From Candidatus Spyradenecus sp. (GTDB lineage: Bacteria; Verrucomicrobiota; Kiritimatiellia; RFP12; DVOR01): a stretch of DNA of 64,000 bases. The first letter of the stretch is position 1; each line of letters starts with the position of its first letter. Both the position numbers and the translations under genes were made by a program. The notes under the pieces are model-generated. The model made no database searches. It was given only the letters and a program-made list of their open reading frames with translations, and was not told the DNA's origin. Positions 5,390 through 52,291 of this stretch are shown here, in pieces. The stretch is from assembly GCA_045613865.1 (NCBI GenBank), contig JAZLBT010000013.1, positions 26,846-90,845 on the forward strand, given 5' to 3'.

Positions 5390-5958
5390 AAAGACCTCAT
5401 CTCATAGAAGGAATAATAAACAAAATGAACACATCACCATATAATATACCATATATATTATAAAAAGAAAAGTAAGAATTAATAGCGAATGGAATATTGA
5501 ATATTGCACAATATAACCGCGGGGGTAAGAAGAGTACTTCTCAAAAGAAAGGATGTCAAAGAGGAAAGAAGAAGGATCATCAGCTTACGCCCCCGGGGGA
5601 CGGCGCGCCAAAATGAAAAATGTCAGCGAATCCGTTATAATGAAAGTTTCCAAACAAACCAAAATAAAGGACGCTGACATGGGCAATTATACCAAAAAAC
5701 GGGAGCATATTGACTACACAATGCGAAAAATTATTCAAAAACTTTGGAATTTTGATATTGATAGCCCAAAACACTGCTCAATCAAGTAACTTTCTGCTAT
5801 TTTGAGGATGCCGTATACAACGCATCGCGATGAAATTAAACAACACTCTACCACAATATCCCCATCAATAAAAATGTCGCCGCCAAGCGACATTTTCACT
5901 CTGTCACTAACCTTTATCTAATGCAAAATCAAACACGGAACGTTTGGCAATCAAACAT

Positions 5959-6050
5959 GGTGCGGTTTGAGCGTCATTCAGGTGCGGTTTGAACGTCGTT
6001 TAGGTGCGGTTTAAATGACACGTAAGTAAAGGTGCTTTAATCACGACATT
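5959..6050. repeat. Four tandem, progressively degenerate ~22-bp direct repeats (GGTGCGGTTTGARCGTCRTTYA). The last copy overlaps the 3' end of the 6037..7653 gene.
   Basis: Copies read directly: 5959-5980, 5981-6002, 6003-6024 and 6031-6050 (the last degenerate). Preceded by overlapping palindromes CAAAC-N7-GTTTG-N4-TCAAAC at about 5928-5956. Confidence 0.8.
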
Positions 6051-7653
6051 CACTCAGTGACATTTGATAATAAATCGTTCCCCGTGGAAATGTTATGAGA
6101 GGATATGCTGCTGGCATCTGAAGGTCGACCTGATAAATGCCACTTGCCTCCTCATCTCTGAAGATCACAGGGGCATCATAAACGACTTGTTGCGTTTCTC
6201 CAGAAGTTGCCCACACCGTCAAATGATAGGTTTTTTCTGCGTTAACAACGCTCTCCTCCGGTAAGATTATTTTAACCCTTACTAGTGGACCTTCTGCTTC
6301 AAGTAGAAAACGATCAAATCCTACATCAAAATCTAACGTACGAAATCCCTCTAATGTTGGTTCAAGTGGAAATTCAAACAATTCAAACGCATTTAACTCG
6401 TTTTCTACATCTTTTACACTCGAATCAAACTTCACCATTGCATCAGGCGCATTAACCACGATAATCTGTTCGTCATCAACTTCTACTCTTTCGGCAACAA
6501 GTGACGATGTAGGATTGGTAGGCGTTCCAGTAAAACACGCACAAAGCGTCGTCTCCATATCTACCACTCCCTCCGTATCAAGTGGGTAGCCATGCAGTTG
6601 TGTTTCTTTATTTAGACGTAAGATACCTCTTGTTATTTTTCCAGGTAAGACAAACAATTCATCTGGATAGGAAAAACTCGTATCATATGCTACACCTACC
6701 GATTTCATCGGCGTGTTGGAGATAGGCTTCCCCCCACGTGAGCGGATTTCTCCTCCATCCATTGTCACCGTTGTTGCACGGAATAACGAACATCGTTCCT
6801 TAACCCCCGACAGATCCTGTAATCGTAATCCTCCCGATGTCACAGAAGAGTCCACAACAACGTTCACTGTTGCTCCCTCAAGTCGAACAACTTTCGCCTC
6901 CGCAAGCGGACTAATAACAGGATTTGAATCCAACGTTCCGTCACTTGTTTTAAACAAAAGATTCCCAGATGCTAATGTTACCATTGCATCAATTACATAC
7001 TCTGTCCCATAGGACACTGGAAAATAGAGAGGTGCATAAGGTGTCGCAGGTTTTGCAACAAGACTTGTTCGCCCAACGAGCGTAAGCGAAGAAGATTTTT
7101 TATCTGCCCATGGTGCACGCGCGATATGAATCTCCACCTTAAGAGGATTCTCCTGCGTGAATCCCTTTGATGGAGCTGCTGTAATTGCGCTATGCCAAAC
7201 AGCTGCATATGATCCTACTTCTGAGCGTGCAATCAATGCGTTTTCACCCTCAAAAAGAATCTTTAAATTTGTCTTATATCCCTTGTTTTTTGGGCGGTCA
7301 ATAACGATTGGAGCAATGGTATAATGCGTATAATCAGAGTCGCTTGACGTTACAACTGATTGACTTGTTGGAGCAAGGTGACATTGATCAAGAATAAGCG
7401 TAACGTTTAAATCTTCTGTTGCATTATTTTTCATGACAATGCAAATTGAAGCATCTACAGGCTTCCCATTTGTTGTAATACGATATGTTCCAGACGTTTG
7501 AATTCTATAATTGTATTGTCGCACACCAGAGGCATTATTCAAGGGTAACTCCGATGTTCCCTGTGACAATGACCAACCGTTAAGAAAAGTTGCCACATCT
7601 GCTTTTAACATTGTTGCTAAAAGTCCAAGAAACACTAGGAGTGTATACTTCAC
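6037..7653 (-). CDS. Secreted hypothetical protein.
   Basis: N-terminal signal peptide MKYTLLVFLGLLATMLKA. No recognisable catalytic motifs. Last gene of the long minus-strand array. Confidence 0.5.
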   Translation of the reverse strand: MKYTLLVFLGLLATMLKADVATFLNGWSLSQGTSELPLNNASGVRQYNYRIQTSGTYRITTNGKPVDASICIVMKNNATEDLNVTLILDQCHLAPTSQSVVTSSDSDYTHYTIAPIVIDRPKNKGYKTNLKILFEGENALIARSEVGSYAAVWHSAITAAPSKGFTQENPLKVEIHIARAPWADKKSSSLTLVGRTSLVAKPATPYAPLYFPVSYGTEYVIDAMVTLASGNLLFKTSDGTLDSNPVISPLAEAKVVRLEGATVNVVVDSSVTSGGLRLQDLSGVKERCSLFRATTVTMDGGEIRSRGGKPISNTPMKSVGVAYDTSFSYPDELFVLPGKITRGILRLNKETQLHGYPLDTEGVVDMETTLCACFTGTPTNPTSSLVAERVEVDDEQIIVVNAPDAMVKFDSSVKDVENELNAFELFEFPLEPTLEGFRTLDFDVGFDRFLLEAEGPLVRVKIILPEESVVNAEKTYHLTVWATSGETQQVVYDAPVIFRDEEASGIYQVDLQMPAAYPLITFPRGTIYYQMSLSECRD

Positions 7654-7667
7654 TTCTACTCCTAACC

Positions 7668-8171
7668 TTATAAGGAGGTTGTCGTGCGAATTTTATAGTC
7701 AAAAAGAAGACTACGCACTTCCATAATAAGGTCTTCCTTAAATGTAAATTTATCAACTTTAATACCATTCACACGGCCCGCAAGAAGAACACGAGGAAAA
7801 AGCGGAGTATCTTCTGTAGCTTCTTCTAGATCAAAAAGCCCCGCATCCACAAGTATTTGGAGATGATATTTAATTTCTGACGGTGGCAAATGAAGGGTAT
7901 ATTTCTTAATATCACCATAAGTCGAGGTCTCATCAATACTAAACTGATCACTAACAGCAGCAGACATTCCTTCAATATAGGTAATATTACCATTCCCATT
8001 AATTTCACAATTAATTCGAGGTTTATCTTCTGCAAGTTGAAGTGTAATCTGCAAACGATTAAATTTAGAATCCGCAACATGTACATTATGATGTTCGCGA
8101 TACCAATACGGAGAACAACCATTCATTGTAAACGCAAAAAGAAAAAGTGTGATCATGAAAAAAATATGCAT
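7668..8171 (-). CDS. Hypothetical lipoprotein.
   Basis: Lipobox-like N-terminus (…FAFTMNGC). Sits 15 nt upstream of the secreted protein gene. Confidence 0.45.
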   Translation of the reverse strand: MHIFFMITLFLFAFTMNGCSPYWYREHHNVHVADSKFNRLQITLQLAEDKPRINCEINGNGNITYIEGMSAAVSDQFSIDETSTYGDIKKYTLHLPPSEIKYHLQILVDAGLFDLEEATEDTPLFPRVLLAGRVNGIKVDKFTFKEDLIMEVRSLLFDYKIRTTTSL

Positions 8172-20664: not shown

Positions 20665-23097
20665 TTATTCCTCGTCACTTTCTGTGGCATCTTCTGTATC
20701 CTCTTCTTCTGCAGAAGCTTCAGCTTGTTCCACGTCAAAAGGAATATTGAGACTTGGCAACATATCCGTTGTCTTCTTTAAACGTTGAGCATGTTCAATC
20801 AAACGTGCATAAAGATTTTTACCAGCAGCAGACTTTTCAATGGCATCCGCAAGATAGGTGTGAAGCACCATGGCTGCTCCAAGTGCAAGTTCCGAACGCA
20901 ATGATGGTTGAAGGGCAATTGCCTTAAGCGTAATATCATTTGCAATTGCCTGCTCAATCACGGGGATAATACGCGTACGTTCCGTTTCAAAGAACTTATT
21001 CCAACGCATTTCTCGGCCCTTGTAGACAATACTATCCTTATTTGCGACAGTAATGCCAAAATCTCGACGAACATGCTTCTGCAACTTCGCAAGATTCCCA
21101 TTGCTTACCCATTCAATCAACCATGTTTTAAAAGTATTTAAGACCGTAATACGCGTAGCATAAGCCTCTGCTGCAACTTTAGCCTCATTACTCTTTAAAC
21201 GTTGGAGAACCTTTTGATACTCAACTGTTGCATCTTCAGGCATAAAATCCTTTAATTCCTTCTCCACACGTGTCATACGGCTAGGAATTGATGCAACTTC
21301 TTCTTCGATACGCTTTTGTTCATCGCGAAGTGCTTCTTCCTTCGCACGTTGTTCTGCTTCTGCACGCTGAGCATTAACAATTTCTTGTTCCACGGAACGA
21401 CGATGTGCAAACGCAGTGCGCTTCATGGTATTAAGATTTTTCTCGTATCCTAGCAACTTAGATTTGATTGCCATTACCGTCTTTAGATTAGTTATTGTAA
21501 GCGTGTTTTCCAATGCTTCAAGAGCATCAATACTATCCATTTCCTCTAACGAAGCGAGAGCCTTTTCAATTGCTTCTGTTTCCGTTCGGATCTGCGTTGC
21601 TTGCGCTGTTAAAGAGGAAATATCTTCATTTGCTGTGCGAAGAACACGCAACAATTCCGTAGGAGCAGTTTCACCTTCGTATGTAGCCGAAAGATCAAGC
21701 CACTTCGCTTCCTTCTCATGCGTTGCCTCGTTCGCCGCTTTTTGAAGACGATCAAAAATGCTTTCACACGTACGAACATCAGCTTCAACTGTTGCAAGAT
21801 TTTGTTTAACAGTCTTTGCTTTTTCCTCAAGCGCTTTTTTTATCTTTACTTTTGCAGCACTCAACTGTTGTTGTGACTTTGTGCGTGCGGCTTGTTCCTG
21901 TTGCATAGCAATATCTGCTGCAGAGGTCTCTGTATTTGGTTGAGACTTATCTCCACCCATCATTAAAATTGCCACAACCGTTGCAATCACCAAACAAGCA
22001 ACACCTGCAATAATTCCAATAACAAGTGGCTTTTTGCTCTTCGTCGTTGGCACAAGAGGTGCATTAAAATTTGTCACCGTTGGCATCGGCATTGAAATAG
22101 GCCCCGTAACCGACTTGCCCTTAATCGTAATACGTTTACCCGACCCTATTGTAGACTTTAAGGGTGCAAGGGCCTTATCCATATCCTTGATAAGTGATTC
22201 ATAGTTTGGATAACGTCGATTCGGTTCAGCCTCAAGCATACGCATCACAATCTTATTGATGCTCTCAGGGCAATCGGGGCGCACTTCAATCAATGGACGT
22301 GCAGGACCAAGCAATCGCGCCTTAATCACCTCAACTGCATCTGCGCCTTCAAAAGGTGGAACACCTGCAATAGCATGATACAACGTACCACCGAGCGAAT
22401 AAATATCCGCGCGACAATCAACTTTTTGTTTACGTAATGTTTCTGGAGCAATGTAGTATGGCGTTCCCCACACATCATTGCTAGAAGATGCTCCCGCACC
22501 CGCAAGTGCAGCAATACCAAAATCTGCAAGCTTTGCTTCATGCGCTTCATTGATGAGAATATTTTCAGGTTTCACATCCCCGTGAACAAGACCATGTTCA
22601 CTTGCAGCGCGAAGACCATGAGCAGTTTGCAAACAATAATTCAATGCTGCAGCTGGCATCATCGGTCCTGCTGCCATCAGTTTGTCTAATGCATCTGGAA
22701 GCACCAACTCCATCACCAAATATGGCTGACCATCAACATCACCGAAAGCATAAATAGAAACAATATTCTGTGAATTCAAACGTGCTGCAGCTTGCGCTTC
22801 CTTGCGGAAAGAGTCAATAAAGGAGGGATCTTCTGCTGCCTTTTCACGAAGAATTACTTTGACTGCAATTTTACGCGCAAGACCATCGTCATATCCTTCA
22901 TAGACAGCGCCCATACCGCCTGCACCAATTAAACGCGTCAAACGATATTGCTGCCCCAAACGTCCAGGAACCATAATCTTCTGCGAACAATTCGGGCATT
23001 CAATTTCAGACAAAGGCGTTGCCGTTGTCGGCAATGCCGCATTGCAATTTGGGCAAGTCGGATTTTCAACTGGTTGAGCAATAATACCTACGGACAT
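20665..23097 (-). CDS. Ser/Thr protein kinase with N-terminal double zinc-ribbon, single TM and long coiled-coil C-terminal region.
   Basis: CPNC…CPNC N-terminus. Hanks kinase motifs GAGGMGAVY, HGDVKPENILI, DFG and APE. Transmembrane helix PLVIGIIAGVACLVIATVVAIL. C-terminal heptad-rich segment with an acidic tail. Confidence 0.85.
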   Translation of the reverse strand: MSVGIIAQPVENPTCPNCNAALPTTATPLSEIECPNCSQKIMVPGRLGQQYRLTRLIGAGGMGAVYEGYDDGLARKIAVKVILREKAAEDPSFIDSFRKEAQAAARLNSQNIVSIYAFGDVDGQPYLVMELVLPDALDKLMAAGPMMPAAALNYCLQTAHGLRAASEHGLVHGDVKPENILINEAHEAKLADFGIAALAGAGASSSNDVWGTPYYIAPETLRKQKVDCRADIYSLGGTLYHAIAGVPPFEGADAVEVIKARLLGPARPLIEVRPDCPESINKIVMRMLEAEPNRRYPNYESLIKDMDKALAPLKSTIGSGKRITIKGKSVTGPISMPMPTVTNFNAPLVPTTKSKKPLVIGIIAGVACLVIATVVAILMMGGDKSQPNTETSAADIAMQQEQAARTKSQQQLSAAKVKIKKALEEKAKTVKQNLATVEADVRTCESIFDRLQKAANEATHEKEAKWLDLSATYEGETAPTELLRVLRTANEDISSLTAQATQIRTETEAIEKALASLEEMDSIDALEALENTLTITNLKTVMAIKSKLLGYEKNLNTMKRTAFAHRRSVEQEIVNAQRAEAEQRAKEEALRDEQKRIEEEVASIPSRMTRVEKELKDFMPEDATVEYQKVLQRLKSNEAKVAAEAYATRITVLNTFKTWLIEWVSNGNLAKLQKHVRRDFGITVANKDSIVYKGREMRWNKFFETERTRIIPVIEQAIANDITLKAIALQPSLRSELALGAAMVLHTYLADAIEKSAAGKNLYARLIEHAQRLKKTTDMLPSLNIPFDVEQAEASAEEEDTEDATESDEE

Positions 23098-29117: not shown

Positions 29118-30518
29118 CTACTTACTTGTTCCCAAGATTGTTGCAATTCGTTGAGGACTTGGCCGCCAATAAAGCTTCTTCGGCGTATGAATAACAGCAT
29201 TGCTCTCACGATGATAGAGCACGCCATCCTTAGAGTAAAACATTGGATTCGATTGATGACACGTAATATACATCAAATTCGGGAACTGCTCGAAAAATCC
29301 ATTTGGAATCACGGTAACATGTGCTGGCAAAACAATTGCTGTTACCCCTGGCACCTCTACCTCGGGTGTAATCAACGATGCCTCATCATCATAAACAACA
29401 ACCCCTTGATGATACGGAGAAAGAGTCTTAACAGTGGAATGATTTTGAATCGACTCCCACTGCCATTTTGCTTGATAATCCGCAACCACTTGCTTCGTTG
29501 ACGAAACGAGATAATACCCAACACCCGCCAACGCAACAAGTGCCGAAGCAAGTCCCATTGCCTTGACAGCCACTCCCATTCGACGGCGACGCGCCACTTT
29601 CTTCGCATAGGCAGGCAAGTTCAAAATCCACAAGATGATTTCGCGCATCGATTGCCAACGTTCCTCTGGATTCTTACGAATGCAACGTTCAATCAAAATA
29701 TCCCATCCTGGATTTAACCCCATGCTTGAAGGTCGCTTCCACATTCCAACAGGAAACGTTCCCGTCAACATACGACACATCATCACACCAAAAGCGTAAA
29801 TATCCACAGCAGGAGTGAGAACGGCCTTCGGATCCCACTGTTCGGGCGCCATATAATCCGGCGTTCCACGAACCGCATCATCGGTTAATGTCGAATCAAT
29901 TGCTGCAGCCGCACGTGCGATACCAAAGTCCGTCACAACGGCATGGCCATCGTCTCGAATCAACACATTTCCCGGCTTCAAGTCACAGTGAACAATTGCC
30001 CCGTCAACAAAGGTGTGTGCATAGAAAAGTGCACGTGCAACGTCAGAAGCTAGCGTTTGCACAATACGTTCATCTATGCGCCCCTGCTTCGCAAGCACAT
30101 CTTCAAGCGTGAGCGAAATACGCGAAGAGGTTTCTTCCACATTCGTCGTTACACGCGAGAACCAATTCCGTCCCGACAAAACATCTTTATAGCGATCACG
30201 CGGCAAACCCACGTAGTCCATGATAAAGTAAAGACGACCTGTTTCCGGCATTACACCCATTGTGTGTAGCGTCACAATGTTATTATGGCGCAAACGAACG
30301 GTTGTACGGGCTTCTTCAATAAAGTTTTCAATCGCTTCACTTGTATCTGCGCGTTGAATGTCCTCGCGCAAAACCTTCATTGCGAAAAATTCACGCAACA
30401 ATGGATTCACGACTTCATAAACATCACCCATGCCACCTGACGCAAAGTGCTTCACAACGCGATAGTCACCGACAAGCGTCTGAGAGGGAATAATTGAGCT
30501 ATTCTTCGTCTTATTCAT
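29118..30518 (-). CDS. Membrane-anchored Ser/Thr protein kinase.
   Basis: Hanks motifs GGMGDVYEV, HCDLKPGNVLI, DFG and APE. Transmembrane segment near residue ~330. Short extracytoplasmic C-terminus. Confidence 0.85.
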   Translation of the reverse strand: MNKTKNSSIIPSQTLVGDYRVVKHFASGGMGDVYEVVNPLLREFFAMKVLREDIQRADTSEAIENFIEEARTTVRLRHNNIVTLHTMGVMPETGRLYFIMDYVGLPRDRYKDVLSGRNWFSRVTTNVEETSSRISLTLEDVLAKQGRIDERIVQTLASDVARALFYAHTFVDGAIVHCDLKPGNVLIRDDGHAVVTDFGIARAAAAIDSTLTDDAVRGTPDYMAPEQWDPKAVLTPAVDIYAFGVMMCRMLTGTFPVGMWKRPSSMGLNPGWDILIERCIRKNPEERWQSMREIILWILNLPAYAKKVARRRRMGVAVKAMGLASALVALAGVGYYLVSSTKQVVADYQAKWQWESIQNHSTVKTLSPYHQGVVVYDDEASLITPEVEVPGVTAIVLPAHVTVIPNGFFEQFPNLMYITCHQSNPMFYSKDGVLYHRESNAVIHTPKKLYWRPSPQRIATILGTSK

Positions 30519-30537: not shown

Positions 30538-32583
30538 TTACAGCTTTCTACGAATACACTTTGTCGCGTTATCATATTCAAGCTGATATTTCTTGAGCCA
30601 TTCGGTCAAACGACTTGTCGCATAAGGGATTATTATCGCTTCAAGACGATTACGCTTAATCATTCCCTCAATGATTGTCGTTAAAAGAAACTTCTTATTT
30701 GTCTCTGAGAGCAATGAGGCCTCTTCAAAAACAAGACGCTTCATCTTTGTACACTTATCAAGGCAACCATCCAAAAATTCAACATTCATATTCATGATTT
30801 TTGTAGGCATCACAATCTCTTGCTCATCACTCTCATACTCGAAGAGATAGGCCGCCTTTTCTAAAATGCAAACCTTGGCGCCATCAACCTCTTCATAGGC
30901 CGCATTCCAATCGCGATCCCAGAAGCTTGGCAACTTCTTACCAAAGGCCGTACGCGGAATCAACCCACCCTCTGCGTTATACCAAACATCTGCAAGTTCA
31001 GTATCTCTAAACGCATTCCGTTCGTAGGTAATCGCAGTCGTATTCACATAGAGATTTTCAACCTTCATCCCCTTGAATGCTGTTGGTTTAACATTCAACG
31101 TATAACCTGCGATGTGCTGAATATAAATATCCGCATCCTTAGACGTACACTTCAAAAGGTGTAAACACTTTTCATCCGATGCATCAAGCTGCACGTCAAA
31201 AGACGACATCGGTTCATCAAGTTCAATCTGATGGGCAAGCAAGAATGAAGAAAGCGACTGAATAGGATTTGCAGGACGAACCTTCGGCACACTTTCCTTC
31301 TTTGATTTATCAATCAAAAGTGCTTGCATCACCTCAACAACCGCCTCACCAACATTCTCATCCGTTGCATTTGACAACGATGTGGTCGCAACAACTGATG
31401 TTGAGGTCTTCGCTTGCCGTCCAAAATAGGGGACATAACGGCCTTCTTCCGGCGAAGCAAGAGGTTTAAAGAGTGAAAGCGCCCACACGGCATAAAGAAG
31501 AATCGTCAACAAAAATGCACCCGCGCAAATAATACACTTTCGCACCAATGCACGCCAAGGCGTACGATAGCACGATTTCATTCGCATCAATGCGGTATGC
31601 AAATCACCCAATGTCCGATAACGATGCGTAGGATCTGAATCTAAACAGCAATGAAGAATCTTTTCCCACTTCTCATTCAACGGTGGCGTTGATGGCAAAA
31701 GAAATTCACCTGAGAAGATTTCACCCGTGAGCAATTGATACATCGTCACACCCAAGGCATAAAGATCCGTCTGCGGTGAAGGCGGCTCGCCCATACGCAA
31801 CTCAGGCGCCATGTAGTTAATCGTTCCCAACACAAGGTGATAGGCTTGACCATTCGTCTGCATACGCAAAGATAACGAACGATCCTGACCATTCATCATA
31901 CGCTTACGAAGCGAAGCATCGGCAACCTTTGCCACACCAAAATCTGCCACCATCGCATGCCCGTCAGGACGAATCAAAATGTTTGCAGGCTTAATATCAC
32001 GATGAATCACCCCGCTCCCATAATGGTGAGCATAATTCAAAGCCGCAGCAACGTCTGCCACAATTCGACGGACAAGCACTGGATGGATAAGACGATTTAT
32101 ACGATGACCATACGTCACCATGTCTTCAAGCGAAAGCGAAACACACCCACCACTAATCGTGGGCTCGGGAGTCTCGTCCCAACACTCCAAAGGATGTTCG
32201 CCAAATGCAGCATGGAGTAAAGCATTCTTGCGCTTACTCGACATTGCCACATAATCCATCACAAAGTAAAGCGTCTTTGTTGCGGCATCCTGCTCAAGGG
32301 TTTGCACCGAGACAATATTCTCATGACGCAACTGCGCAGTGATACGCGCTTCTTGCAAAAAGCGATCCGCACAATCCTGCCGTTCAATCTCCGTATCCCC
32401 CTGAACAAATAACGTCTTCAATGCAAAACGTTGATGAAGCATCGAATGCTCCACCTCATAAACCGCACCCATGCCACCAACACCAATTTTTCGCAATACG
32501 CGATAAGAGCCAAGCATCATCCCTGCGGTGAGCTCAACATGTTCGTGTAACTGATTAACATTGACGGTCGGTTCGTAACTCAA
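30538..32583 (-). CDS. Membrane-anchored Ser/Thr protein kinase with ~300-aa extracytoplasmic C-terminal domain.
   Basis: GVGGMGAVYEV, HRDIKPANILI, DFG and APE. Transmembrane helix AGAFLLTILLYAVWALSLF. Large C-terminal domain of unknown fold. Confidence 0.85.
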   Translation of the reverse strand: MSYEPTVNVNQLHEHVELTAGMMLGSYRVLRKIGVGGMGAVYEVEHSMLHQRFALKTLFVQGDTEIERQDCADRFLQEARITAQLRHENIVSVQTLEQDAATKTLYFVMDYVAMSSKRKNALLHAAFGEHPLECWDETPEPTISGGCVSLSLEDMVTYGHRINRLIHPVLVRRIVADVAAALNYAHHYGSGVIHRDIKPANILIRPDGHAMVADFGVAKVADASLRKRMMNGQDRSLSLRMQTNGQAYHLVLGTINYMAPELRMGEPPSPQTDLYALGVTMYQLLTGEIFSGEFLLPSTPPLNEKWEKILHCCLDSDPTHRYRTLGDLHTALMRMKSCYRTPWRALVRKCIICAGAFLLTILLYAVWALSLFKPLASPEEGRYVPYFGRQAKTSTSVVATTSLSNATDENVGEAVVEVMQALLIDKSKKESVPKVRPANPIQSLSSFLLAHQIELDEPMSSFDVQLDASDEKCLHLLKCTSKDADIYIQHIAGYTLNVKPTAFKGMKVENLYVNTTAITYERNAFRDTELADVWYNAEGGLIPRTAFGKKLPSFWDRDWNAAYEEVDGAKVCILEKAAYLFEYESDEQEIVMPTKIMNMNVEFLDGCLDKCTKMKRLVFEEASLLSETNKKFLLTTIIEGMIKRNRLEAIIIPYATSRLTEWLKKYQLEYDNATKCIRRKL

Positions 32584-34275
32584 AATCGAAATTCCTTAAT
32601 GGGGGATTGGAAACAACATAATATTATCATAATATATATATTAATGTCCAACGTTTTTTCATATATATCAGTCTCCAACGTTTTTCACATAGACATAGAC
32701 GTAACATAGAGAAAGAAAAATCTTCCAAAGCCCTCATTCATTCTCCAAAAAATCCCATCCAAAAAGAGGAAAATACTCCTTCATCCTTTACTCTTTTACC
32801 CCTACTTTTAACACAGTTTTGAACGCTAAGAAAAAAGCAACACTCTACGACGCATAGGAATACATTAACCTATTCAACTTAAATGAGATAACGTAAATTA
32901 AAGAAGCCCTTTCTCTACTACCGCTTCATCTTGTTGATAACTTGTTCATAAACCTCCATTTCAATCCCTATTGTATCAGTTTAACGAGTTTTATACTATG
33001 AGGTTTTAGGCGGAATCATTTTTTTGTAGGACATTTTTTACGAGTGCGAAATAGTACATTCTGAATAAGTTTGTACTATTCTTTTTTATGGTGAATAAAT
33101 TGTTGAAATAAAGTATTGCTAGTCGAATCTTTGCGGCACGATTGGTGGTAGTACAAATGGTTGAAAAATTGATACCTATTGATTTGAAGATCAAAGCAAT
33201 AGGGTTTGACGCTCAAACCAAAGGGTTTGACCTTCAAATCAATAGGTATTAATTCTTCATTATTCCGCACTATATTTGCCGAGCCATAACTTATACATTT
33301 ATAATAACTTATCTTGAGTATTTTATGGCCAGCAATTTTAAGCTTAAAATCAGTACAATTTTTTTGGGGGCCAACACTTTTAAGGGGAAAATGACAAGCG
33401 GGGAAAATTCTTAAATAGTACAATTTTTGGGCGGGGACTTTTTAGACCTGTTTAGAAAATTCTAGAAAATAGTACAAAGCCCTGAAGAACTGAAACAATA
33501 GGGTTTGATTTTACCTCCTAACACGTCTCTCTATAGATCTCACAACAGATTGTAAAATAAAGAACTTATTCCATGTGTTAATAATTATTCAAAAAAAGCA
33601 GTCTTACGCCTCCCAATCTCAATCTAGCCAACGAAATAAATGATAATTTCCCCTTTCTCCCACGACAAATCTTCCAAGGAAATTAGAATAAAGATAACTT
33701 TTTTATCCATTCATTTCTCATCTCCATCCATTATGACACATCGTCACTTTTCCTAAACAAATATTACAGAACATTTTATGCAACGAAATATTTTTTAAGA
33801 ACTGTAAGAATTTCTCTTGACTCTCTTTCGCTCAATTTGATACCATGCGTCTACCTTTTACCCAATCGACAGGAATAGTACCCGGCAGGGCCGCGTTTTT
33901 ACGCAAACCCGTAAGGCCCGGCGAAGCATCCTTATGAGTGTCGTTTTGATGCGCACGAGTTCGACTAAGGTAAAAGGTTATTTTTTTCTACGCACTTCTT
34001 CTGCGTTATTTCACCTATTGAATTGCCCAATTGTAATTCACCCCTTCCCCCTCATACTCCAAACAATACAGTTTCTAACGCGTTGATATTTCTAGCGTAA
34101 GAAAATTCCTCCGCATTGTTTTGCGACTTTTGCGATTTAAATTTTCAATTATGGCCATTTAAGGTTGTAGAGGGGCAACTTTCTTATTTGCGTGTTGTTT
34201 ATATTTATGGTATAATTTAAAGCAATTTGAATATGAAGGAGATTGCATTGGCGTCTCTTTGAAGGAGTATTATTT
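32584..34275. promoter_or_regulatory. 1.7-kb AT-rich ORF-free intergenic island carrying several short-repeat families. Candidate divergent regulatory region, replication origin or ncRNA locus.
   Basis: The six-frame track shows no ORF longer than 60 aa. It lies between a 14-gene minus-strand array and a >13-gene plus-strand array. The repeats are detailed in the findings. Confidence 0.6.
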
Positions 34276-36699
34276 ATGCGCGTAGCATTAAGTTGGTTAA
34301 ACGAATTTGTTGATTTACATGACCAAACCGTTCAGAGCGTTTCGGATTTATTGACGTTTTCTGGTGTTGAAGTTGAAGCAATTGAGAATACTGGCACGGT
34401 TTTAGATGAATATTTTGTCGTTGGCGAAGTGCTCGAATGTGATGCGCATCCTGATTCGGATCACTTGCATGTGTGCAAGGTTTCTGATGGTAAAGATGTT
34501 TTACAGGTTGTGTGTGGTGCACCGAATGTTCGCGTGGGTGTCAAGGCTCCGCTTGCACGTATTGGCGCAGTAATGCCTGGGCCGGAAGGTTTTAAGATTA
34601 AGAAGGGCAAACTCCGTGGCGTTGAGAGCTTTGGCATGCTTTGCTCGAAGGATGAGCTTGGTCTCGGTGGCGCACATGATGGCATTTGGGAATTGCCGGA
34701 AGAGGCAAAGGCTGGCGAAAGCGTTCAGCAGTTCATGCCTGAGGCCGATACGATTTATGATTTAGAAATTACGTGGAATCGTCCGGACTGTTTGTCGGTG
34801 GTGGGTATTGCACGTGAATTGGCGGCATTGTTGGATCGTCCGCTCAAGTTGCCTGAAGTTGACTTTAACGAAGAAGGTCCGAGCGTCAAGGATGAAGCAC
34901 GTGTAATCGTTGAAGATTCGGAACTTTGCCCGCGTTACACAGCACGTGTTTTGAAGCAGCTTGACCCGAAGGCGCCTACACCGGATTGGATGGCGCGTCG
35001 CCTTGAACAGTGTGGCATGCGTAGTCTTGGCCTCGCGGTTGACGTGACGAATTATGTGATGTTGGAATTGGGCCAACCGTTGCATGCGTTTGACCATACA
35101 ACGTTGACGGATTCGACGATTATCGTTCGCCGTGCAAAGGATGGCGAAGAGATGCGTACGTTGGATGGCGTTGATCGTACACTTGATGAGTCGATGCTCG
35201 TGATTGCAGATTCTACGCGCGCTACGGCGATTGCGGGTATCATGGGTGGCGAAGAGACTGAAATTGCAGATGGTGCAACTGGTACGATTTTGTTGGAATC
35301 GGCATTGTTTGATGCAGCATCGGTGAAGTTCACTGCGACAAAGTTGGGGATTTCTTCGGAATCTTCGTATCGTTATGCTCGTGGTGTTGATCGCGATTTG
35401 GCAGATTTTGCAAGCCGTCGCGCTGCCTCGTTGCTCGCTCAGTATGGCGGAGCGGTTGTTTGCCGTGGCGTGATTGACGCTGATGCACGTGATACGCGTC
35501 CGATTGACGTGAAGTTAGAATATAAGCGTGTGAGCGATGTGATTGGCGTTGAAGTTGCGCCAAAGCGTGTTGATGCAATTTTGACATCGCTCGGCATCAA
35601 GAAGGTTTCGAGCCATGACACGTATGCAACATTCCGTAGCCCGTCTTGGCGTTATGATATTTCGTTGCCGGCAGATTTGATTGAAGAAGTGACGCGTATG
35701 AATGGCTTGGATGCTATTCCGACGCAGCTCCCGACGTTGGCCGCAGTCTCGCAGTTGCCGGAAGATTCCTTCCGCACGAAGAAGGCGGTTCGCCACGCAT
35801 TGTTGGCATTGGGCTTCACTGAAGCTATGCACTATTCGTTCCTCTCAAAGGCCGAATTGGATGCGTTTGATCCAACGGTCACCAATCGTCTTGTGATTCC
35901 TAATCCTGTTTCGGCAGATTATGGCATTTTGCGTGATAGCTTATTGCCGCAGATGATTGGTTCGTTGGGTCGTAATGCTGCACGTCAGATTGAATGTTGC
36001 GCACTTTTCGAAATTGGTCGCGTTTTCGCAGTTGATGCAAAGACGAACGCACCGACGGAATCGGATCGTGTTTCGTTTGGTATTATGGGTCCGTTTGGTC
36101 GTGATGCGCTTTCGCGCCGCAAGCCGTTGCGTGACGAAGAGGCTATGCTTTGGTTGAAGGGCGCCGTGGAATCGTTGTGCGAACGTCTTCATGCGCCGCG
36201 TTTTTCCTTCTATCCCATTCAGCACCCCGCGTTTGCAAAGGGTTATGCTGCGGAAATTTGCATCGGCCGTAAGCGCGTTGGTTTGATTGGTGCTGCAAGT
36301 GCAGAGATTCGCCATCGTTATCGTTTGAATACGCCGATGGTGGTGGCAGAAATTGATGTTGAGCAGTTGACGAAGGGCTTGGATGCGTTGCCTCGTTTAA
36401 AGCCGGTGCCGCAGTTCCCCGCAAGCCGTAAGGATATTGCCTTTATCGCGCCCTCCACGTTGACGCACGAAACAATTGTCAAGACCATTCGTAAGCATGC
36501 CCCAGCTGAGTTGAGTGATGTTGCACTCTTTGACATCTTCACCTCTAAGCAAATGGCCGATGGCACGCGCTCGATGGGTTATACATTAGAATTCCGCTCT
36601 GCAGAACGCACGTTGAAGGATGCAGAAGTGAATGCTGCTTTCGCAAAGATTGTTGCCGCGCTTCATGACGAGCTCGGCGTCGAGATTCGCGAAGCATAA
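34276..36699 (+). CDS. pheT: Phenylalanine--tRNA ligase beta subunit.
   Basis: Canonical N-terminus MRVALSWLNEF with AGGAG RBS 8 nt upstream (the track start at 34243 is too early). tRNA-binding, B3/4, B5 and C-terminal FDX-ACB regions are recognisable. Confidence 0.9.
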   Translation: MRVALSWLNEFVDLHDQTVQSVSDLLTFSGVEVEAIENTGTVLDEYFVVGEVLECDAHPDSDHLHVCKVSDGKDVLQVVCGAPNVRVGVKAPLARIGAVMPGPEGFKIKKGKLRGVESFGMLCSKDELGLGGAHDGIWELPEEAKAGESVQQFMPEADTIYDLEITWNRPDCLSVVGIARELAALLDRPLKLPEVDFNEEGPSVKDEARVIVEDSELCPRYTARVLKQLDPKAPTPDWMARRLEQCGMRSLGLAVDVTNYVMLELGQPLHAFDHTTLTDSTIIVRRAKDGEEMRTLDGVDRTLDESMLVIADSTRATAIAGIMGGEETEIADGATGTILLESALFDAASVKFTATKLGISSESSYRYARGVDRDLADFASRRAASLLAQYGGAVVCRGVIDADARDTRPIDVKLEYKRVSDVIGVEVAPKRVDAILTSLGIKKVSSHDTYATFRSPSWRYDISLPADLIEEVTRMNGLDAIPTQLPTLAAVSQLPEDSFRTKKAVRHALLALGFTEAMHYSFLSKAELDAFDPTVTNRLVIPNPVSADYGILRDSLLPQMIGSLGRNAARQIECCALFEIGRVFAVDAKTNAPTESDRVSFGIMGPFGRDALSRRKPLRDEEAMLWLKGAVESLCERLHAPRFSFYPIQHPAFAKGYAAEICIGRKRVGLIGAASAEIRHRYRLNTPMVVAEIDVEQLTKGLDALPRLKPVPQFPASRKDIAFIAPSTLTHETIVKTIRKHAPAELSDVALFDIFTSKQMADGTRSMGYTLEFRSAERTLKDAEVNAAFAKIVAALHDELGVEIREA

Positions 36700-46064: not shown

Positions 46065-46496
46065 ATGAACAAGAAAATAATCATACTCACACTTGCAAGT
46101 GTCCTTTTAATTACACCCCCAGCACAGGCAAGTGTTGGCAAAATTGCCGCAGCTGCAGGCGTTACACTTATTGGAGGACTTATTGCATATGACCTTCTAA
46201 CCGATGACGATGCTTCATGTCATGCATCATGCTATGTATGTGGAGAACGTCTTCAACACCACGAAATCGCGCATTGGGCCCATCGTAGAGATTATCATTA
46301 CTCAGACTTTTGCCCACATGGCGTACGTTGCTGTTACGAACAACGTCCAATTGTAGTTAATCACGTTGTCGTTAAACACCCCAAACCACATAAGCCAACG
46401 ATCAAACCCAAGAGAGAGCCTTCACGAAAAGCTCCACCAGCAAAGAAGGGACCTCCCAAACACAATAAGCCAGCAAAGAAAAAACCGCGTCATTAA
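46065..46496 (+). CDS. Small secreted Cys/His-rich protein with Lys/Pro-rich basic tail.
   Basis: Signal peptide. Cluster CHASCYVCGERLQHHEIAHWAHRRDYHYSDFCPHGVRCCYEQ. C-terminal KP-rich tail. Confidence 0.4.
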   Translation: MNKKIIILTLASVLLITPPAQASVGKIAAAAGVTLIGGLIAYDLLTDDDASCHASCYVCGERLQHHEIAHWAHRRDYHYSDFCPHGVRCCYEQRPIVVNHVVVKHPKPHKPTIKPKREPSRKAPPAKKGPPKHNKPAKKKPRH

Positions 46497-46532
46497 AAAA
46501 GAAGAGGATAGGTAAATGCCTATCCTCTTTTT
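46495..46532. terminator. Bidirectional rho-independent terminator between convergent genes.
   Basis: 9-bp stem GAGGATAGG-TAAATG-CCTATCCTC, flanked by an A-run upstream and a T-run downstream. Confidence 0.7.
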
Positions 46533-51959: not shown

Positions 51960-52291
51960 AGGACTATTATACCATGAATCTTTTCCAAATAAAATAGCTT
52001 TTTTTACTAGTAAAAGATGGGACTTATATTAGACGATCATACGCATTTGATATGTTAACATGATAAAAATATATTCCGTACGTCTTTCAAAAAAGCACCC
52101 TTTAATAGACAAAAAAATACACAACCTATTACATCTAAAATCTTCGCTAACAACCAATGAATCGTATACTTTTCTCTTCTTTTTATTCAAAAAAAAGAAA
52201 ATGGAGAAAGATTTGTAAAAATATTTCATCTAGAAGCCTCTTTTTTTTGGTAAAATAGATACCAAGTAAGCGATGGTACTGGAGCAGTATA

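Follow-up and report, generated by a model that had tools for sequence, protein, structure and literature searches.

A tandem array of three palindromes in two-turn helical phase between a Ser/Thr kinase gene and pheT in an uncultured gut Kiritimatiellia bacterium: a candidate protein-binding array on a lineage-specific repeat element

The DNA analysed here is a 64-kb stretch (64,000 nucleotides, hereafter the window) of contig JAZLBT010000013.1 from Candidatus Spyradenecus sp., an uncultured gut bacterium of Kiritimatiellia/Lentisphaerota-like affiliation. It contains a gap of 1,692 bp without any credible open reading frame (ORF), at 32584-34275, between a divergently oriented Ser/Thr kinase gene on the minus strand (30538-32583) and pheT on the plus strand, the true ATG of which is at 34276. 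This gap is the largest and also the most AT-rich intergenic region in the window, with a GC content of ~0.33 compared with 0.45 for the window as a whole. Gene orientation switches at the gap and the genes around it are housekeeping genes. An array of three palindromes inside the gap, at 33183-33246, is the subject of this report.

The array consists of three consecutive units of 21-22 bp, each built up by TTTGA-N3-TCAAA and a (C)AATAGG linker, and was recovered by Tandem Repeats Finder (period 21 bp, 3.0 copies, 33183-33246), as repeat family D1 and by exact-pattern search. Site 1 has the core TTTGAagaTCAAA (33183-33195) with GATC at 33189-33192, and extends to a longer palindrome, CCTATTGATTTGA-aga-TCAAAGCAATAGG (33175-33203, inverted repeat I15), with 13-nt arms and one mismatch. 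Site 2, GTTTGAcgcTCAAAC (33204-33218), is a perfect 6+3+6 palindrome that stays perfect when extended to GGTTTGAcgcTCAAACC (GGTTTGA-cgc-TCAAACC, 33203-33219). Site 3, GTTTGAcctTCAAAT (GTTTGA-cct-TCAAAT), is found at 33225-33239 both by reading the sequence and by pattern search. The half-sites TTTGA/TCAAA are invariant in all six instances; the central triplets (AGA, CGC and CCT) and the linkers vary.

A preliminary description of the sequence had reported three palindromic, operator-like sites at about 33185-33245, the first with a GATC core, and both statements are correct. Its distances between the centres, 16 and 23 bp, are not: the centres are at 33189, 33211 and 33232, which gives spacings of 22 and 21 bp, or about two helical turns, and the three sites are thus on one face of the helix. 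The statement that CAATAGG(G) precedes each site holds strictly for site 2 only, because site 3 is preceded by CCAAAGG and site 1 by the inverse, CCTATTG; an extra CAATAGG follows site 3. The recurrence that had been noted near 33494 is exact, with CAATAGGGTTTGA at 33496-33508, and there is also an inverted copy of this 13-mer, with one mismatch, at 32961-32973.

Exact matches to TTTGA-N3-TCAAA occur three times in the window, all in this array, when 0.30 are expected from shuffled sequences, and none of 100 shuffles reached three. The three palindromes, with their geometry corrected, are therefore real and non-random. The looser motif GTTTGANNNTCAAAC with up to two mismatches shows no genic enrichment (6 genic matches compared with ~5 expected), and the remaining five matches fall in two intergenic clusters.

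The preliminary description missed a large imperfect palindrome (33144-33283, ~100-140 bp) that has sites 1 and 3 as its arms and site 2 at its apex, where the extended site 2 forms the apical 7-bp stem. The best-matching arms, 33162-33206 and 33215-33259, are 45 nt long and 82% complementary (inverted repeat I1), and the differences in the outer 34 nt are three A/G transitions only. As a single strand the large palindrome forms one long hairpin, with RNA folds of -53.2 kcal/mol (z -7.5) and -56.2 kcal/mol (z -9.7) and a DNA fold of -30.4 kcal/mol (z -7.9).

The gap also contains four copies, in both orientations, of a module of ~45 nt with the consensus ATAGTAyAAA..TGAwAC..(AATAGGG or CTATTGA)TTTGA. 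Modules M2 (plus) and M4 (minus) are placed around site 2 in the large palindrome. Module M1 is an inverted copy at 32957-33005 on the minus strand (alignment A1, nhmmer E = 5e-6, inverted repeat I2) of the form ATAGTAyAAA..TGAwAC..ATAGGGwTTGA, and module M3 is a direct copy at 33464-33512 on the plus strand (nhmmer E = 2e-8). Both end in a lone half-site, which in M3 is the CAATAGGGTTTGA recurrence mentioned above. Searches with nhmmer rendered these four local copies only, and no further one either in the remaining 62 kb of the window or among 1.5 Mb of loci from relatives. The 5' part of the module is formed by a second repeated motif, (A)TAGTACAA, which is found seven times in the gap between 33049 and 33884 (33051+, 33071-, 33149+, 33352+, 33415+, 33469+ and 33875+; P ~1e-8), and 4/5 of the window's total of TAGTACAA copies lie inside the gap (P ~2e-8; reached by none of 2000 shuffles). 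The lone half-site of M1 follows TGATACAAT, an extended -10-like sequence directed toward the kinase gene, and that of M3 follows a weaker extended -10-like match directed toward pheT. The module as a promoter was nevertheless rejected, since one-mismatch matches to TGNTATAAT occur about once per kb by chance. The whole region of ~560 bp was also considered as one big palindrome (score 50.5 compared with 30.9 +/- 6.6 for shuffles, with a maximum of 52.5) and set aside as weakly supported, by modules M1 and M3 only.

A second array with the same hexamer is located ~27 kb from the triple palindrome, at 5929-6014, in the second-largest true gap of the window. It is composed of TCAAAC, N7, GTTTGGcaaTCAAAC, N8 and 2.5 copies of GGTGCGGTTTGA plus 10 nt, with the unit GGTGCGGTTTGAnCGTC, and Tandem Repeats Finder gives a period of 22 bp in 2.5 copies. 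The array lies 25 bp past the stop codon of the gene at 6037-7653; downstream of it, at a distance of ~240 bp, a GH31 gene has its TGGTATAAT promoter (5686-5694, minus strand). Clusters of at least three GTTTGA were found twice in the window, compared with 0.003 expected. The second array has no hairpin potential (z -0.14), so the two loci have the hexamer and its two-turn phase in common, and not a stem-loop. They also share a 13-mer, GGTTTGAGCGTCA, which occurs in the second array and in site 2. As a plain BLAST match it is not significant (E = 1.3), and it becomes so only because it joins one array to the other and because of the hexamer-cluster test.

The closest relative by PheT is a metagenome-assembled genome (MAG) contig, JAUNQZ010000017 (L007), with 86% identity, followed by a small clade of 'Lentisphaeraceae/Kiritimatiellia' MAGs with 74-81% identity; the PheT of the source organism is a singleton cluster. 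Synteny is conserved downstream of pheT (mla-like operon) and breaks exactly at the gap. Upstream of pheT the gene content of the relatives differs and the spacers are 170-680 bp long, and the closest ortholog of the kinase gene (61% identity, L182) has an upstream region of only 150 bp. No homologues of the gap were found in phage and plasmid collections or in 86 Kiritimatiellia pheT loci. The pattern of the whole element had no match in metagenome contigs, and the matches in scans of viral contigs were coding repeats or chance.

Arrays of the same period are abundant among the close relatives. Tandem repeats with periods of 16-40 bp that are not a multiple of 3 are almost absent from 1.5 Mb of Kiritimatiellia loci, except those of 22 bp (16 arrays) and 23 bp (3 arrays). 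The density of such arrays is ~45 per Mb in the close clade of the window compared with 2.5 per Mb in distant Kiritimatiellia. Their cores are genome-specific and often palindromic; some cores are non-palindromic, and several members cannot form hairpins. The period is constant whatever the length of the core (11-20 bp), and the variable columns cluster in the linkers (Fisher, combined P = 3e-5). Members were found in loci L105, L106/L107, L108, L109, L002, L004 and L008 (for example L105:4896-4954, L106:9746-9836, L106:17344-17559 and L109:3272-3428). Three GATACGSCGTATC units with a 22-bp period are present ~215 bp upstream of the pheT promoter in L105, and three or four GAAACCCGTACGGGTTTC units are present at the equivalent position in L106 and L107. 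A 3 x 22-bp array with the core GATACGGCGTATC and a conserved flank, GGGGACCCCAAAAAGA, is repeated within L105 (41-97, 4896-4954, 12561-12619 and 12759-12817).

The novelty of the present observations lies mainly in this clade-wide class of phased 22-23-bp arrays, of which the window array is one member. It is also possible, though less likely than not, that the triple palindrome belongs to a class of chromosomal 'iteron-like' elements that is specific to this clade of gut Kiritimatiellia and has not been described before. Such elements would typically have three to six units of 22-23 bp with variable linkers in a strict two-turn phase, at about one array per 20 kb, and orthologous positions would be occupied by different cores from genome to genome; L105 and L106, for example, have different triples at the same place upstream of pheT.

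Other features were seen beside the arrays of the relatives. After two of the L105 copies comes a Z-DNA-like tract of ~100 bp with alternating purines and pyrimidines, and next a TGGTATAnT promoter; these two resemble a repeated promoter-upstream cassette, and the other two are situated between convergent genes. A kinase gene in L106/L107 follows a gene for an extracytoplasmic function (ECF) sigma factor, and ahead of the latter gene are three 22-23-bp arrays in a row. The spacers in front of pheT in the relatives are packed with unrelated simple repeats, such as AATTAGT heptamers, ATTACGA-type repeats and ATGGACnnn 9-mers (L106:9480-9730, L109:5147-5200 and 5398-5493, L007:9832-10000), some of which have been mis-called as small genes.

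The gap itself does not appear to be a coding remnant. No trace of one was found by tblastx against all fetched loci, and tblastn gave no match in the gap when an ECF sigma factor or the ORFs that precede the kinase ortholog in relatives were used as queries, and an origin from decayed genes or pseudogenes was therefore rejected. A GC-rich island at 33835-33995 has no significant structure (z -1.3). The longest ORF of pheT begins with TTG at 34243; the alignment with all orthologues begins at the ATG at 34276, and the product of 807 amino acids that results is the form in the protein database. On the other side, the start codon of the kinase gene is directly preceded by a 27-bp tandem repeat in 2.2 copies (ATATATATCAATCTCCAACGTTTTTTC, 32634-32691), which overlaps a minus-strand match to a sigma-70-like promoter (32650-32623). 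The kinase gene is one of three Ser/Thr protein kinase genes on the minus strand within 12 kb (20665-23097, 29118-30518 and 30538-32583), two of which are adjacent and paralogous. Elsewhere in the window, an apparent intergenic gap of 654 bp is filled by an ORF at 46066-46497 (~143 amino acids) with a signal peptide and with terminator-like hairpins on either side, which is missed by ORF lists with a 150-amino acid cut-off.

An exact extended -10 sequence, TGGTATAAT, is found just upstream of three genes in the window (5686-5694, minus; 34208-34216, plus; 51966-51974, minus), and TGGTATAnT is present upstream of pheT in relatives too. This sequence appears to be a strong promoter signature of the lineage.

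Several known systems resemble the array in part. The iterons of Rep_3 plasmids (R6K, pPS10 and pSC101 types) are three to seven direct repeats in a two-turn phase of ~22 bp, and the window array likewise has at least three repeats of 17-22 bp with a phase of ~22 bp. Cooperativity in iterons depends on the helical phase of the 22-bp repeats, and cooperative binding to the same face is known for the Rep_3 type (PMC4980987). Unlike Rep_3 iterons, the window array has no rep gene or remnant, and its context is one of chromosomal housekeeping genes. Origins of this type have DnaA boxes and an AT-rich unwinding element beside the iterons; the gap is AT-rich and contains a single DnaA box, with one mismatch, at 32932. 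The units of the window array are moreover dyads in themselves, and a larger palindrome encloses all three.

The operator of FabT, a winged-helix protein of the MarR family, is the palindrome ANTTTGACTGTNAAATT (PMC8406281), which like the window sites has TTTGA, a 3-bp spacer and TCAAA in ~15-17 bp overall. A metagenome scan for two adjacent GTTTGA-N3-TCAAA rendered 71 heterogeneous contigs in which both types of site could be recognised. In L133/L141 and L112, five 22-bp units with TTTGA-N3-TCAAA are located directly upstream of Rep3_N/Rep3_C initiator genes of Rep_3 type on small replicons (L133:2122-2230, L141 and L112:1696-1790), and these are genuine iterons; L112 has a perfect DnaA box (TGTGGATAA) beside them. 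In the gut contigs L115/L131/L134/L156/L164 and L160, two to four palindromes (AGTTTGAnnnTCAAA) upstream of acpP, accB and fabH (L134:10922-10955, 11299 and 11354; L160:10357-10390) match the published FabT palindrome and probably represent a FabT-like regulon in a low-GC organism. The core dyad TTTGA-N3-TCAAA is thus a documented target of winged-helix proteins. The window array differs from FabT operators in being a triple at a fixed phase of 21-22 bp flanked by a kinase gene and pheT. No fab or MarR-family genes were found in the 64-kb window, and FabT is known from Lactobacillales and not from bacteria of the Planctomycetes-Verrucomicrobia-Chlamydiae (PVC) group.

Tandem operators such as lambda OR1-3/OL1-3, those of GlpR and paired ARG boxes have two to four dyad sites about two turns apart, which are read by contacting dimers. 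They overlap promoters and adjoin, or are controlled by, a known regulator gene. The window array has dyads phased by whole helical turns in the same way, but it does not overlap a promoter and there is no regulator gene nearby.

The best reading of these observations, which we put forward with less than even confidence, is that the triple palindrome is a helically phased binding array for a dimeric protein, situated on a lineage-specific repeat element. Each dimer, most plausibly of winged-helix type, would read one TTTGA-N3-TCAAA dyad on double-stranded DNA, and the two-turn spacing would set three dimers on the same face of the helix, enabling cooperative binding as in plasmid iterons and tandem operators. 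The array would be carried on a repeat element represented by the four ~45-nt modules in the gap and by the related array 27 kb away. It would be one instance of the family with three to six units of 22-23 bp that is abundant in the Kiritimatiellia clade, and not an ancient operator of the flanking genes. We infer that protein binds here, and that the complex would organise or regulate the divergent control region of the kinase gene and pheT rather than being inert. Cooperative binding by a dimer had already been proposed in the preliminary description. The invariant half-sites, the phase of 21-22 bp, the second locus and the winged-helix precedent speak for that proposal, and the lack of a partner gene, a promoter and conservation speaks against it.

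A number of observations weigh against a binding array. The distance from the array to the start codons is 600 bp for the kinase gene and 1,040 bp for pheT, and the only exact promoter of lineage type in the gap (TGGTATAAT at 34208) is 970 bp from the array. No overlap of the array with a convincing promoter was found, as would be expected for a classical operator. Genes for DNA-binding proteins, regulators, rep or par were not found in the 64-kb window, in which the Pfam search covered ORFs of at least 150 amino acids. The only helix-turn-helix (HTH) match, a weak one to HTH_5/HTH_20, covers 20 residues of the product of 7668-8171 (minus strand, 167 amino acids). This protein has a lipoprotein signal peptide with a Cys lipobox and no relatives in PDB; the match is probably spurious, and the protein was rejected as a local regulator. 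When the orthologous intergenic regions were compared, as the preliminary description had recommended, the motif was absent in every available relative, both upstream of pheT (PheT identity 74-86%) and upstream of the kinase ortholog with 61% identity. The gap and its motifs are thus found in this genome only, and the array is not a conserved operator of either flanking gene. A recent duplication could by itself explain the invariant half-sites. The L105 triple occurs four times in 17.6 kb, always with three units and the conserved flank, once between convergent genes and often 25-250 bp downstream of stop codons, which looks more like the behaviour of a dispersed repeat than of a regulon. Taken with the nesting in a large palindrome and the amplification of the module, the clade-wide arrays make an origin as a repeat element at least as important as a role as a classical operator.

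The main alternative is a selfish or neutral extragenic palindromic repeat, similar to repetitive extragenic palindromic (REP) sequences and bacterial interspersed mosaic elements (BIMEs), REP doublets forming hairpins (REPINs) or miniature inverted-repeat transposable elements (MITEs). Such an element would spread or be maintained as a hairpin of single-stranded DNA or RNA, and the 'operators' would be sub-palindromes without regulatory role in the host. This is a serious possibility, if not a probable one. REPs are species-specific, extragenic, clustered and sometimes tandemly reiterated (PMC3733652), and the window element resembles them in these habits, being unique to this genome and located at a synteny breakpoint, while the relatives carry genome-specific palindromic arrays of their own, such as the fourfold L105 triple. 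As in REPs, REP/BIME pairs and REPINs, there are stem-loops of 20-40 bp (13-nt arms in site 1 and 7-nt arms in site 2), and two inverted units form a hairpin of ~100 nt. The two inverted arms of a long hairpin, as in REPINs and MITEs, are present in sites 1 and 3 with their strong fold (z -7.5 to -9.7), and the module has been amplified to four local copies in both orientations.

The constant phase of 22-23 bp is, however, unexpected for elements driven by hairpins, and the array at 5929-6014 and several members of the class cannot form hairpins at all. Only two related loci were found in 64 kb, related arrays exist without palindromes, and the module is confined to its four copies in the gap. 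No GTAG/CGTC tag, the mark of REPs (PMC3733652), is found next to any of the three stems; the one GTAG present (33148-33151) is ~27 nt outside site 1, and membership of the GTAG/CGTC REPs was rejected. Dispersed copies with target-site duplications, as in REPINs and MITEs, were not seen, and no direct repeat flanks 33144-33283. Nor was any gene for a transposase or a REP-associated tyrosine transposase (RAYT) found in the 64-kb window.

The array might also be a relic in decay, left in fast-evolving junk DNA by local duplications, both tandem and inverted, and be unbound and without function; the symmetry would then be a by-product of the inverted duplication of a segment containing a palindrome. 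The near-identity of the outer arms suggests that a duplication was recent, and the lack of a conserved counterpart of the gap, the simple repeats that fill the corresponding spacers in relatives and the longest-invariant-run test, which is not significant for the window array alone (P = 0.85), are what a relic would give. An independent second array with the same hexamer and the same phase is not, and the excess of arrays at exactly 22-23 bp across the clade, in which the cores are conserved and the linkers vary, points to constraint. We consider a mere relic improbable.

An RNA element, in which the long hairpin or the three small ones act as a small RNA, a processing or stability element or a terminator, is very unlikely. 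The RNA folds are strong on both strands, there is a weak terminator-like call on the minus strand (33219-33203), and a sigma-70-like promoter match (33276-33305) adjoins the large palindrome on its right side. This match is within the chance rate, as promoter-like matches in general are (8 found compared with 6.4 expected), and the flanking genes diverge, leaving nothing to terminate. The mismatches in the stem show no strand preference, with one G-U pair on the plus strand and two on the minus strand, and there are no homologues for an analysis of covariation. In Rfam 15, searched with gathering and with E-value thresholds, the only matches are to models of eukaryotic microRNA precursors (21-37 bits compared with gathering scores of 100-249 bits), spurious hits that the long hairpin accounts for, and a known RNA family was rejected because no match reached the gathering threshold.

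Least likely of all, and barely worth considering, is a replication origin (the chromosomal oriC or that of an integrated plasmid or phage) in which the units would be iterons and the ATAGTACAA 9-mers auxiliary initiator boxes: the orientation switch at the largest and most AT-rich intergenic region, the three repeats of 21-22 bp with seven copies of a second 9-mer, and the same core palindrome in genuine Rep_3 iterons are outweighed by the tests of the origin and partition variants in the preliminary description, none of which supported them. DnaA boxes with at most one mismatch are at chance level in the window (21 compared with 16.3 expected), with a single one-mismatch box in the gap (32932) and no cluster. 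The cumulative GC skew keeps falling through the gap, and minus-strand genes are G-rich on both sides of it (coding-strand skew +0.15 to +0.22, compared with ~+0.03 for the plus-strand genes to the right), which means that the replication strand does not switch there. With no dnaA or dnaN gene nearby and housekeeping genes all around, a chromosomal oriC was rejected. An integrated plasmid origin was rejected because Pfam identified no Rep family in window ORFs of at least 150 amino acids and tblastn with two Rep_3 proteins found no remnant in the gap, and a parS/ParB centromere because the gap has no match to the 16-bp palindrome TGTTNCACGTGAAACA with three or fewer mismatches.

Taken alone, the triple palindrome is of modest importance, as an orphan element that either binds protein or is a repeat. 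Its value lies in giving access to an uncultured gut lineage with almost no experimental genetics, in which intergenic islands are packed with phased, genome-specific repeat arrays. These arrays have practical consequences, since they break MAG assemblies (contig L110 ends inside one) and trigger spurious gene calls. If the arrays are mobile, they would represent a new sort of small repeat in bacteria, in which the unit is a phased triple instead of a single hairpin. If the iteron-like class is real, it would imply either that array-binding proteins form a large and rapidly evolving repertoire or that arrays in a 22-bp phase are written or mobilised by a new mechanism. Should the arrays prove to be platforms for binding, they would be markers of the cis-regulatory or architectural code of the lineage and would provide defined probes for finding the proteins that read them.

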